DNA from: Escherichia coli
GTDB taxonomy: Bacteria > Pseudomonadota > Gammaproteobacteria > Enterobacterales > Enterobacteriaceae
Reading direction: 5' to 3' (one strand)
Assembly (NCBI RefSeq): GCF_003334405.1
Contig: NZ_QOWM01000003.1
Length of the DNA: 64,000 bases
The position numbers and the translations under genes are program-made. Positions within the stretch are counted from its first letter, which is position 1; each line of letters begins with the position of its first letter. The notes below the pieces were generated by a model. That model searched no databases. It was not told where the DNA came from and was given only the letters and a program-made list of their open reading frames with translations. Shown here piece after piece: positions 36,490 to 39,411 of the stretch.

Positions 36490-36560
36490 ATCCGGTGCGC
36501 CGTAAAACCCCATCCTTCAGGGCGGGGATATAAGGCGCGGTTTTCCACCTGACCAGGTGT

Positions 36561-36980
36561 TTGCTGTTGTTCAATGTATTGGCGGATGACGGATATTGGC
36601 GCACCTCCGCAGCTACTGGCAAAATAGCCAGGACTCCACAAAACGCCTTTGTAGTAATACCTGAATGCAATATCTGGTCGATCTCGTCGCAGTCACCTAC
36701 CCGATACGCCTTTGAGGCTGTTTACCAGACTGGATATCGCCAGTTTGGGAGGATAGTTAATTAACAAATGGACGTGATCTGGTTCGCCATCCATTTCAAC
36801 CAGTTCAGCTTCAAAATCAGCACATACATTTGAAAAGTAAGTGCGTAGTTTTTCTGTCGCGTCATGGTCAAAAATCTGGCGTCGGTATCTGGTGACAAAG
36901 AGCAGGTGAACATGCATCAGGAAAACACAATGCCTTCCACGCCGGATATCGGTTTCTTTTTTCACAGACCAAAGTATCAT
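36561..36980 (-). pseudogene. tnpA: IS200-type Y1 (HuH) transposase TnpA with in-frame TGA before the catalytic-Tyr region
   Basis: N-terminal part ...PDHVHLLINYPPKLAISSLVNSLKGVSGR ends at TGA (36693-36695); same frame continues LRRDRPDIAFRYYYKGVLWSPGYFASSCGGAPISVIRQYIEQQ. Confidence 0.7.
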
Positions 36981-36987
36981 TTGACCT

Positions 36988-38196
36988 GTGAAACGATTAC
37001 AGGCATTTAAATTCCAGTTAAGACCCGGTGGTCAACAGGAGTGTGAAATGAGGCGCTTCGCAGGCGCATGTCGTTTCGTTTTCAATCGTGCTCTGGCACG
37101 TCAGAATGAGAATCATGAGGCCGGTAATAAATACATCCCTTACGGGAAAATGGCTTCCTGGCTGGTTGAGTGGAAAAATGCCACTGAAACGCAATGGCTT
37201 AAAGATTCTCCCTCACAGCCATTGCAACAGTCACTGAAAGACCTTGAGCGGGCTTACAAAAACTTCTTCCGGAAGCGGGCTGCTTTTCCCCGATTCAAAA
37301 AGCGGGGACAGAATGATGCATTCCGCTACCCGCAGGGCGTTAAGCTCGATCAGGAAAACAGCCGTATTTTTCTGCCGAAACTGGGCTGGATGCGCTACCG
37401 GAACAGCCGTCAGGTCACGGGTGTTGTGAAAAATGTCACTGTCAGCCAGTCCTGCGGTAAGTGGTACATCAGTATTCAGACAGAAAGTGAAGTATCAACT
37501 CCGGTTCACCCTTCAGCATCAATGGTCGGGCTGGATGCTGGCGTGGCTAAACTCGCCACGCTGTCAGATGGCACAGTCTTTGAGCCTGTAAACAGTTTTC
37601 AGAAAAACCAGAAGAAGCTGGCGAGACTTCAGCGACAGTTAAGCCGCAAGGTCAAATTCAGCAACAACTGGCAAAAGCAGAAACGCAAAATACAGCGACT
37701 GCATTCCTGTATCGCAAATATCCGCAGGGACTACCTTCACAAAGTCACAACGGCCGTCAGCAAAAACCACGCAATGATAGTCATTGAGGATTTGAAGGTC
37801 AGCAACATGTCAAAGTCAGCAGCGGGTACGGTCAGCCAGCCGGGGCGCAATGTCCGGGCAAAATCAGGTTTAAACCGTTCGATACTGGATCAGGGCTGGT
37901 ATGAAATGCGCCGCCAGCTTGCGTACAAGCAGCTCTGGCGTGGCGGTCAGGTGCTTGCTGTTCCGCCAGCGTATACAAGCCAGCGTTGCGCGTACTGTGG
38001 TCATACAGCGAAAGAGAACCGCCTGTCACAAAGTAAATTCAGATGCCAGGTATGTGGATATACAGCGAACGCCGATGTAAATGGCGCTCGCAACATTTTA
38101 GCGGCGGGGCACGCCGTTCTTGCCTGTGGAGAGATGGTGCAGTCAGGCCGCCCGTTGAAGCAGGAACCCACCGAAATGATTCAGGCGACAGCCTGA
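36988..38196 (+). CDS. insQ: TnpB (OMEGA-type RNA-guided nuclease family) of the IS609-like element
   Basis: N-terminus [12 protein letters not shown]; RuvC-I VGLDAGV, Ruv[11 protein letters not shown], zinc finger CAYCGH...CQVCGY, Ruv[16 protein letters not shown] start at 36988 (internal ATG at 37048 is an alternative). Confidence 0.85.
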
Positions 38197-38235
38197 ACGT
38201 AGCAGGGATCCACGTCCTTCAGGGCGTGGAGGATG

Positions 38236-39411
38236 TCAATATCGGTTTCTGTCAGCGATTAAATTCAACACCACGTAACAAACGCCTCCGGCAATTAATC
38301 CCCAAAACGCAGAACCAATCCCGACCAGCGTCAATCCACTTGCCGTTACCAGAAATGCCACCACCGCCGCGTCTCGCTCACGCTCATTATGCAGCGCCTG
38401 ATACAAACTGCCGCCGATGGTACTTAACAGCGCCAGACCTGCCAGCATCTGGATCCAACTTACGGGCAGGGCAGCCATCATCCCGGTAATGGCACTACCA
38501 AACAGACCTGCGAGCAAATAGAAAATGCCTGCAACGGCAGCGGCCAGCCAACGTTGATCTTTATCCGGATGCGCTTCCGGGCTTTGGCAAATAGCCGCGG
38601 TGATTGCCGCAATACCGACGGAATAAACGCCGAAAGGGGAAAAAACCAGTGCCAGCAATCCAGTAAATACAATTAATGGCGAAACAGGAGCCGAATATCC
38701 AGCTGCTTTCATTGCTGCGATACCCGGTGCGTTTTGCGATGCCATCGTCACCAGAAAAAGGGGGAGTGCAACGCTCAGGCTGTGAGCAAACGAAAAATCA
38801 GGGGTAATATAAGTGGGGAGAACGGGTTTAAAGACAACATCAGTTGTGACAACGTCACCTTGCGCGATGACGATCACGATCCCAATAATCATCGCGGCAA
38901 TTACCGCATAGCGCGGCGCAACGGCCTTGGTTGCCAGCCATACCAGCAACATACTTCCACACAACGTAAATTGACCGTCCAGACTGGCAAACGCCTGTAA
39001 ACCAAAGCGTAATAAAATCCCGGCAAGCATTGCCGCCGCAAGCGAGTGCGGAATAATGCGCATCAGACGAGCAAAGAGTCCCGTTATGCCGCAGAGGACT
39101 ATTAGCGCGTTGGTGACAATAAAAACGCCGATGGCTTCGTTAAGTGTTAGTCCCTGCAATCCGGTGACCAACAAAGCCGCGCCAGGCGTTGACCATGCGG
39201 TGAGAACAGGTACGCGATACCATAATGTCAGAGTCAGCGTACTGACGCCCATTGCCAGCCCCAGCGCCGTCATCCAGCCAGAGATTTGTGCAGTGGTGGC
39301 TCCGGCGACAATCGCTGCTTGCCAGATTATTGCCGCTGAACTGGCGTAGCCAATTAATACCGCCAGAAACCCCGCCAGTAGCGTGGGTGGAGGAATAGAA
39401 AACAGACGCAT
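38236..39411 (-). CDS. ydcO: BenE-family (benzoate transporter-like) inner-membrane protein
   Basis: 391 aa from the internal ATG at 39411 (MRLFSIPPPTLLAGF...); the longer track ORF is rejected. Confidence 0.8.
   Translation of the reverse strand: MRLFSIPPPTLLAGFLAVLIGYASSAAIIWQAAIVAGATTAQISGWMTALGLAMGVSTLTLTLWYRVPVLTAWSTPGAALLVTGLQGLTLNEAIGVFIVTNALIVLCGITGLFARLMRIIPHSLAAAMLAGILLRFGLQAFASLDGQFTLCGSMLLVWLATKAVAPRYAVIAAMIIGIVIVIAQGDVVTTDVVFKPVLPTYITPDFSFAHSLSVALPLFLVTMASQNAPGIAAMKAAGYSAPVSPLIVFTGLLALVFSPFGVYSVGIAAITAAICQSPEAHPDKDQRWLAAAVAGIFYLLAGLFGSAITGMMAALPVSWIQMLAGLALLSTIGGSLYQALHNERERDAAVVAFLVTASGLTLVGIGSAFWGLIAGGVCYVVLNLIADRNRY

Follow-up and report, generated by a model that had tools for sequence, protein, structure and literature searches.

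The hairpins at both ends of an Escherichia coli insertion between ydcL and ydcO are very probably the subterminal palindromes of IS609

We analysed a 64,000-nt stretch of Escherichia coli DNA (RefSeq assembly GCF_003334405.1, contig NZ_QOWM01000003.1; hereafter the window) in which a short hairpin-forming motif occurs at both ends of an insertion between the genes ydcL and ydcO. We found that the insertion is a copy of IS609, an IS605-group element of the IS200/IS605 family with divergent tnpA and tnpB genes, and we consider it very likely that the two hairpins are its imperfect subterminal palindromes, left (IPL) and right (IPR). The element, its genes and its sites lie at the following positions of the window.

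36492-38239, + strand (the active 'top' strand): IS609, IS200/IS605 family, 1748 bp, delimited by five insertion sites and an empty-site match.
36487-36491, + strand: TTTAT target motif, outside the element; TTAT (36488-36491), its final tetranucleotide, forms the cleavage site on the left (CL), and the motif is the predicted transposon-associated motif (TAM) of TnpB.
36504-36507, + strand: left guide (GL), AAAA, the tetranucleotide that adjoins the left hairpin foot on its 5' side; it co-varies with the flanking target in relatives.
36508-36527, + strand: left subterminal hairpin (IPL), CCCCATCC-TTCA-GGGCGGGG; the left cleavage site is 16 nt away.
36549-36980, - strand: tnpA pseudogene (Y1 HUH transposase), an open reading frame (ORF) of 95 aa with a nonsense codon at 36693-36695.
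36988-38196, + strand: tnpB (insQ), intact, 402 aa, an RNA-guided endonuclease by its Pfam, NCBIfam and PDB matches.
38206-38209, + strand: right guide (GR), GGAT, where IS608 (PMC5934647) and most relatives have GAAT.
38210-38229, + strand: right subterminal hairpin (IPR), CCACGTCC-TTCA-GGGCGTGG; it doubles as the last stem of a predicted omega RNA, the 'RE-like tetraloop'.
38236-38239, + strand: right cleavage site (CR), the terminal TCAA of the element, at a distance of 10 nt from the foot of the hairpin.

We joined 300 nt of left flank (36192-36491) to 300 nt of right flank (38240-38539) as an artificial empty site and found that strain EcN_Sk contains the joined flanks as one uninterrupted match of 100%. 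Of 5426 complete E. coli genomes, 2136 (about 39%) match contiguously in this way and carry the empty ydcL-ydcO allele. The element itself is present in 5016 of the 5426 genomes at several different loci, and we compared four further insertion sites: a TetR-family gene beside ytfB (in O157:H7), yedK, a DUF3251 gene and gltX/yfeD. At all five independent E. coli sites, similarity starts at CCGGTGCG right after ..TTAT and stops at ..GGATGTCAA, and the flanks beyond are unrelated; the pentamer 5' of the element is TTTAT at four sites and CTTAT at one. The bases on either side of the junctions differ from one another at both ends, and the boundaries are therefore unambiguous. The first-pass annotation of the window had set the left end at 36492, right after TTTTTAT with TTTAT as the target, and at the five sites and the empty site this is exact; it had set the right end at 38238, which the same sites move to 38239. 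The comparison with alleles lacking the element, which it had proposed, gives exactly 36492-38239.

We found no target duplication: the empty site is identical to the joined flanks and contains the target motif once, and ..TTAT is present on the left only at the five sites. The repeat comparison within the window found no terminal inverted repeats linking the two ends. Both absences are hallmarks of the IS200/IS605 family. At the same ydcL-ydcO site, K-12-lineage copies share 99.9-100% identity with the window element. The O157:H7 copy, with a TnpA that RefSeq labels 'IS609 family transposase', shares 97.7%, and it is on this latter identity that the name IS609 rests.

The first-pass annotation had seen two + strand copies of the 12-mer TCCTTCAGGGCG, at 36513-36524 and 38215-38226; we confirm both, and there is no third match in the window even when one mismatch is allowed. 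Between the two copies the repeat reaches 21 nt (36508-36528 and 38210-38230, 86% identity). It is possible to read the motif as a chance repeat, or as a repetitive extragenic palindrome of the host that is unconnected with the element: 0.24 matches are expected, and with one mismatch allowed at least two were obtained in 3 of 100 shuffles, so that the number of motifs by itself makes the repeat only modestly improbable. However, its only two copies in 64 kb lie exactly 16 and 10 nt inside the comparatively defined ends of the element, in the same orientation; both travel with the element to the four other E. coli loci and are missing from the empty site, and both are kept in relatives from other genera. 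Because the repeat sits at both ends of a mobile element and is kept in other copies and relatives, we rule out chance, and we give this explanation almost no probability.

Both hairpins are 20 nt long, with an 8-bp stem and a TTCA loop. The left hairpin has an A.C mismatch at 36512/36523 and one T.G pair, whereas in the right hairpin all pairs are formed, one of them T.G, and T38209-A38230 can extend the stem; its DNA fold has a z of -2.15. From the left stem to the right stem, two positions are changed with pairing kept (C-G to A-T and A.C to G-C). The A at 36512 is a derived G-to-A change that breaks a pair, and most copies have G at this position. An outer stem, GCGCC/GGCGC (36497-36501 with 36534-36538), encloses the left guide and the left hairpin, and three relatives (L016, L018, L021) have GTGCC/GGCAC in its place, with C-to-T and G-to-A changes that compensate each other; the outer stem is not part of the formal covariation count, the MAFFT columns of the enterobacterial and betaproteobacterial groups being out of register. 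In several betaproteobacterial relatives (L040, L045, L049, L051, L053, L063, L072, L079 and L088), an extra internal stem expands the right hairpin and the terminal GGATGTCAA is kept.

To compare the ends more widely, we used 80 loci that a single scan of representative genomes had given. They belong to Enterobacterales, Burkholderiales and other Proteobacteria, and their TnpB shares 58-94% identity with the window protein. The left hairpin is found in the same place in about 30 relatives, and GGATGTCAA at the right terminus is nearly invariant. Among loci with a recognisable left end, the target and the left guide fall into four classes: TTAT with AAAA (n = 12), TTAC with AAAG (n = 13), TGAT with CAAA (n = 6) and TGAC with CAAG (n = 1). 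Target base 4 tracks guide base 4 (T with A, C with G), and target base 2 tracks guide base 1 (T with A, G with C). In IS608 of Helicobacter pylori, where GL is AAAG and CL is TTAC, the first and second guide bases pair with the second and first target bases, respectively, the fourth bases of guide and target pair with each other, and A+16 is paired with T-3 (PMC3201880, PMC5934647); in this register, the guide rule holds in 32 of 34 relatives. The TTAT and TTAC classes both occur inside a closely related enterobacterial group, and the association is therefore not one inherited event. At the right end, the guide GAAT or GGAT accompanies TCAA. The comparison supports the view that the cleavage sites would be read by four-nucleotide guides 5' of each hairpin. 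The bases 3' of the left hairpin (window 36528-36535) also follow the target class in the alignment of relatives, reading ATATAAGG or ATGAATAG with TTAT or TTAC and AAGGATAG with TGAT, a covariation that fits the base triplets of IS608 (PMC5934647).

The first-pass annotation had proposed that the hairpins are same-strand end hairpins of the kind that IS200/IS605 elements use for recognition by TnpA, and the ends, the conservation and the guide covariation all support this, with TnpA binding presumed. The hairpins could instead be primarily transcription terminators, the left one (on the - strand, followed by TTTTAC) for tnpA and the right one for tnpB or ydcO. The left hairpin does lie after the tnpA stop codon on the - strand and is followed there by TTTT, the complement of the AAAA guide; however, the terminator scan is silent at both hairpins on both strands, the right hairpin is followed by AGGATGTCAA (+ strand) or ATCCCTGC (- strand) and by no T-run, and the T-run on the left is shorter still in relatives with an AAAG or CAAA guide. 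Termination would also leave unexplained why the same hairpin is found in the same orientation at both ends and why guide and target co-vary. We therefore regard termination as a very unlikely primary role; a terminator function would be at most secondary, for the left hairpin on the - strand.

In the window copy, tnpA carries a single lesion at base 36694, which changes TTA (Leu96) to TGA. We also considered a frameshift and discarded it: the alignment with the intact 143-aa TnpA of O157:H7 contains no indel and the nonsense substitution is the only lesion. The nonsense codon removes the C-terminal part of the protein with the catalytic Tyr. RefSeq flags tnpA with an 'internal stop' in a K-12-lineage genome whose element is one base off that of the window, and the nonsense codon of the K-12 tnpA has already been published (PMC2891674). 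With NF033573 (cut-off 55), the intact O157 TnpA reaches 145.7 bits, and it also matches the TnpA structures solved for IS608 and ISDra2. The window copy is unable to move itself, and its ends are intact sites that lack a resident transposase.

In contrast to tnpA, tnpB is intact. Its protein has the Pfam domains OrfB_IS605, Cas12f1-like TNB and helix-turn-helix, scores 379.8 bits on NCBIfam NF040570 (guided_TnpB; cut-off 100) and gives 188 bits to TnpB of ISDra2 from Deinococcus radiodurans (8exa/8h1j) with the three RuvC motifs aligned, the Asp/Glu/Asp residues being kept in GLDAG, IEDLK and NADVN. In the literature on the activity of E. coli InsQ or IS609 TnpB, we found nothing specific. 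A 14-nt inverted repeat, TTTCACAGACCAAA / TTTGACCTGTGAAA (36960-36993, 86% complementary), spans the divergent start codons of tnpA and tnpB, which lie 7 nt apart, and it may be a shared regulatory site. In most of the E. coli copies that we fetched, tnpA is broken and tnpB is intact; three of these copies, L001 (at 3222-3241), L002 and L004, have single pair-breaking substitutions in the right hairpin, and the window copy has one in the left hairpin, at 36512. Judged from sequence, the transposition parts of individual E. coli copies appear to be decaying while tnpB is retained. Among the wider relatives, L010, L060, L077 and L086 have no tnpA and keep both end hairpins, with the left hairpin 70-163 nt upstream of tnpB; such derivatives should be non-autonomous and mobilisable in trans.

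The right end of the element overlaps a predicted omega RNA (also called reRNA), whose parts are as follows.

38102-38239, + strand: predicted omega-RNA scaffold, from covariation across 50 relatives.
38102-38106/38112-38116, + strand: predicted stem, included in the covariation count.
38123-38127/38160-38164, + strand: predicted stem, included in the covariation count.
38180-38186/38191-38197, + strand: predicted hairpin spanning the tnpB stop codon, with pair-preserving variation seen by eye.
38240-38255, + strand: predicted 16-nt guide, TATCGGTTTCTGTCAG, in the flanking DNA, placed by analogy with ISDra2 (PMC8612924) and Geobacillus elements (bioRxiv 10.1101/2023.03.14.532601).

The layout GTAGG(A/G)A-T-stem-TT(C/T)A-stem-A-GGATGTCAA at the right end is kept in almost all relatives. 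In the 50-sequence alignment, 7 of the 9 pairs of the right hairpin have compensatory changes and 97.5% of cells are paired. Over the three counted helices, 98% of cells are paired and 12 of 19 pairs have compensatory changes, and we found that none of 500 shuffles was as good and that no slid register came near. The single-sequence fold of the region has a z of -2.98. The closest Rfam models are HgcC (RF00062; 22.2 bits against a threshold of 50), sot0042 (RF02656; 15.5 against 88) and RAGATH-18 (RF03064; 25.4 against 44.9), all of them matches to tnpB-associated RNAs. The HgcC match spans 38133-38249, and the sot0042 match is to the 3' hairpin of that family, whose consensus AuCccCGCCCUUcAGGGCGggGa aligns to window 38207-38230. 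We rejected filing the RNA under any of the three, the scores being under the gathering thresholds. The 'RE-like tetraloop' common to sense-overlapping transcripts (sotRNAs) and HgcC is a G+C-rich stem of 8 bp, capped by a UUCA loop, at the 3' end of RNAs that overlap tnpB (Gomes-Filho et al., PMC4615843), and the likeness of the window RNA to HgcC and sot0042 is in this one shared module and is not family membership. The same paper reports that a tnpB of E. coli K-12 has a sense-overlapping transcript (PMC4615843). Some E. coli plasmids hold only the last 39-143 nt of IS609, that is, the omega-RNA scaffold and the right end without tnpB (NZ_CP186508.1 12619-12761, NZ_AP023207.1 2-40).

Given an RNA at the right end, the motif might matter at the RNA level only, the right copy being an omega-RNA stem and the left copy a coincidental or vestigial duplicate. 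This would fit the covariation, which is far stronger in the right hairpin than in the left, the near invariance of GGATGTCAA even where relatives have no left end found upstream, and the sub-threshold matches to tnpB-associated RNAs. However, there are 1.7 kb between the left copy, upstream, and the omega RNA, about 30 relatives have this copy at a constant 15-16 nt from the boundary, and the four nucleotides before it co-vary with the flanking target, which is sensible only for recognition of DNA by TnpA. The four loci without tnpA also retain the left hairpin, and the published mechanism of IS608 requires both hairpins (PMC3201880). We argue for a DNA-level role of the left hairpin because it lies outside the omega RNA, has a fixed position and is preceded by a co-varying guide, and a role confined to RNA seems to us highly improbable.

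We found nothing that contradicts the identification of the hairpins; several observations set its limits. Two relatives, L009 and L027, break the guide/target rule, and in relatives outside E. coli the boundaries are the points where similarity stops, not empty sites. In the left hairpin, 88% of cells are paired and one pair has compensatory changes; this covariation is weak and cannot stand alone, and the case for the left hairpin comes mostly from conservation and position. The pair-breaking base 36512 in the window copy, together with disruptive changes in the right hairpin of several E. coli copies, suggests that the ends are decaying. For the RNA, neither the window nor four relatives gave an Rfam match at gathering level, and the predicted assignment draws on covariation and analogy.

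IS609 as known from K-12 (insQ/tnpB and the tnpA pseudogene) and from O157:H7 is the same element as that in the window, and nothing substantive differs. IS609 resembles IS608 in its same-strand subterminal hairpins, in the logic and pairing register of left guide and target and in the lack of a target duplication (PMC3201880, PMC5934647), and in both elements the right cleavage site is TCAA, 10 nt 3' of the hairpin (PMC3201880). In contrast, the left cleavage site is TTAC, 19 nt 5' of the hairpin, in IS608 and TTAT, 16 nt 5' of it, in IS609 (PMC3201880, PMC5934647), and the left guide is AAAG in IS608 (PMC5934647) and AAAA in IS609. The hairpin sequences also differ, TnpA is only distantly similar (~72 bits), and tnpA and tnpB are co-directional in IS608, unlike the divergent pair of IS609. 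To ISDra2, IS609 is linked by its homologous TnpB. The guide RNA of ISDra2 consists of the tnpB 3' end, the right end and ~16 nt of flank, and its TAM is the transposon target (PMC8612924). An ISDra2-type TTGAT target is used by some IS609 relatives, whereas the predicted TAM of IS609 is TTTAT; the RNA and the nuclease activity of IS609 are likewise predictions.

By analogy with ISDra2, the TAM of InsQ, the K-12 TnpB, is predicted to be TTTAT and its guide TATCGGTTTCTGTCAG. This 16-mer occurs once in the window, the empty allele reads TTTAT followed by TATCGGTTTCTGTCAG, and TAM and guide together spell the empty-site (donor-joint) sequence found in EcN.

The mechanism is established for IS608 and ISDra2; for IS609 we infer that TnpA binds and cleaves, that the omega RNA is produced and that TnpB is active. 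A TnpA dimer would bind both hairpins on the single-stranded + ('top') strand, where the left guide AAAA would pair with TTAT just outside the left end and the right guide GGAT with TCAA, with which the element ends. The element would be excised as a single-stranded circle and the flanks resealed without a scar, giving a predicted donor joint of TTTAT followed by TATCGG (in longer form, GCGCTTTTTAT followed by TATCGGTTT), and re-insertion would occur 3' of another TTAT without target duplication. The omega RNA would be a transcript running from the tnpB 3' end across the right end and ~16 nt into the flank, with the right hairpin as its last stem, and would guide TnpB to cut the scar-free empty site (TTTAT and flank), upon which the element would be copied back in.

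The genes and the terminator that flank the element are as follows.

35788-36456, + strand: ydcL, DUF3313 lipoprotein gene, the left neighbour, from its ORF and the RefSeq annotation of identical flanks.
36465-36489, + strand: ydcL intrinsic terminator, an 8-bp stem with a GTTA loop (36465-36484) and a T-run (36485-36489), from the terminator scan.
38236-39411, - strand: ydcO, BenE-family transporter gene, with its stop codon TGA (38236-38238) from the element; the upper coordinate is computed from a 1176-nt RefSeq coding sequence.

The terminator stem GCGCCATC-GTTA-GATGGCGC is followed by TTTTTAT (36465-36491 as a whole), and the insertion point lies in the T-run/AT tail of this terminator and also splits the TAA stop codon with which the convergent ydcO ends. 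The ydcO of the empty site encodes ...ADRNR before its TAA, in which TA comes from the right flank and the last A is complementary to the final T of TTTAT (TA/A). With the element in place, ydcO reads TA/T TGA: one C-terminal Tyr is gained, the stop codon is the complement of the terminal TCA of TCAA, and YdcO of the empty allele is one residue shorter. The first-pass annotation had the element abutting the ydcO stop codon and possibly altering the C-terminus; the stop codon is in fact inside the element, and the C-terminus is altered, by one Tyr and the exchange of the stop codon only.

The complement of the terminal TCA serves as the stop codon of a convergent gene at three of the five E. 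coli sites (ydcO, yedK and yfeD), and each time the native stop lies at or across the insertion point. At the yedK site (L002 3240-3243), the native TGA lies across the junction and one Cys is added, and at the yfeD site (L004 3244-3247), GCA TAA becomes GCT TGA and the protein is unchanged. We also looked for the terminal TCAA as a family-wide convergent stop and rejected it: over 67 loci, long convergent ORFs ending at this TGA numbered 11, as against 10 and 13 in the other frames. The use as a stop codon looks like a by-product of the AT-rich target, whose complement ATAA contains TAA, and of the survival of harmless insertions.

Another family member, IS200C, is inserted in E. coli 19KM1803 (L008 590-1320) within ~2 bp of the IS609 site (window 36485-36491 / 38240), in the same T-run of the ydcL terminator beside the ydcO stop codon; two IS200/IS605 elements have arrived independently at one spot. 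The GC skew of the + strand is positive in 8 of 8 8-kb bins of the window, and because it is positive throughout, the + (top) strand would be the lagging-strand template, which is the orientation preferred by the IS200/IS605 family (PMC5027513). This agreement is one instance and gives only weak support.

The IS609 copy described here is a known element in an already known state, a single transposase-dead K-12 copy that works, or once worked, by a known mechanism, and it does not change the view of the family. In the literature that we searched, we did not find the base-exact ends of IS609, the TTAT/AAAA guide logic or the exchange of the ydcO stop codon stated. The practical value is annotation hygiene: the window now has base-exact IS609 ends, and the annotated stop codon and last residue of ydcO derive from an insertion sequence. 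For the family, the comparative data are an independent natural confirmation, in a different clade, of the guide/target pairing rule of IS608. We also entertain, as a possibility that we think doubtful, that the intact TnpB and the omega RNA of the transposase-dead K-12 copy are still active and, by analogy with the known TnpB systems, act as an allele-specific nuclease on the empty ydcL-ydcO allele. If this were true, incoming empty alleles would be cut during conjugation or transduction, leading to conversion (a homing, drive-like behaviour) or to a local barrier to recombination, and this could help to account for the persistence of a transposase-dead copy at one site in most E. coli.

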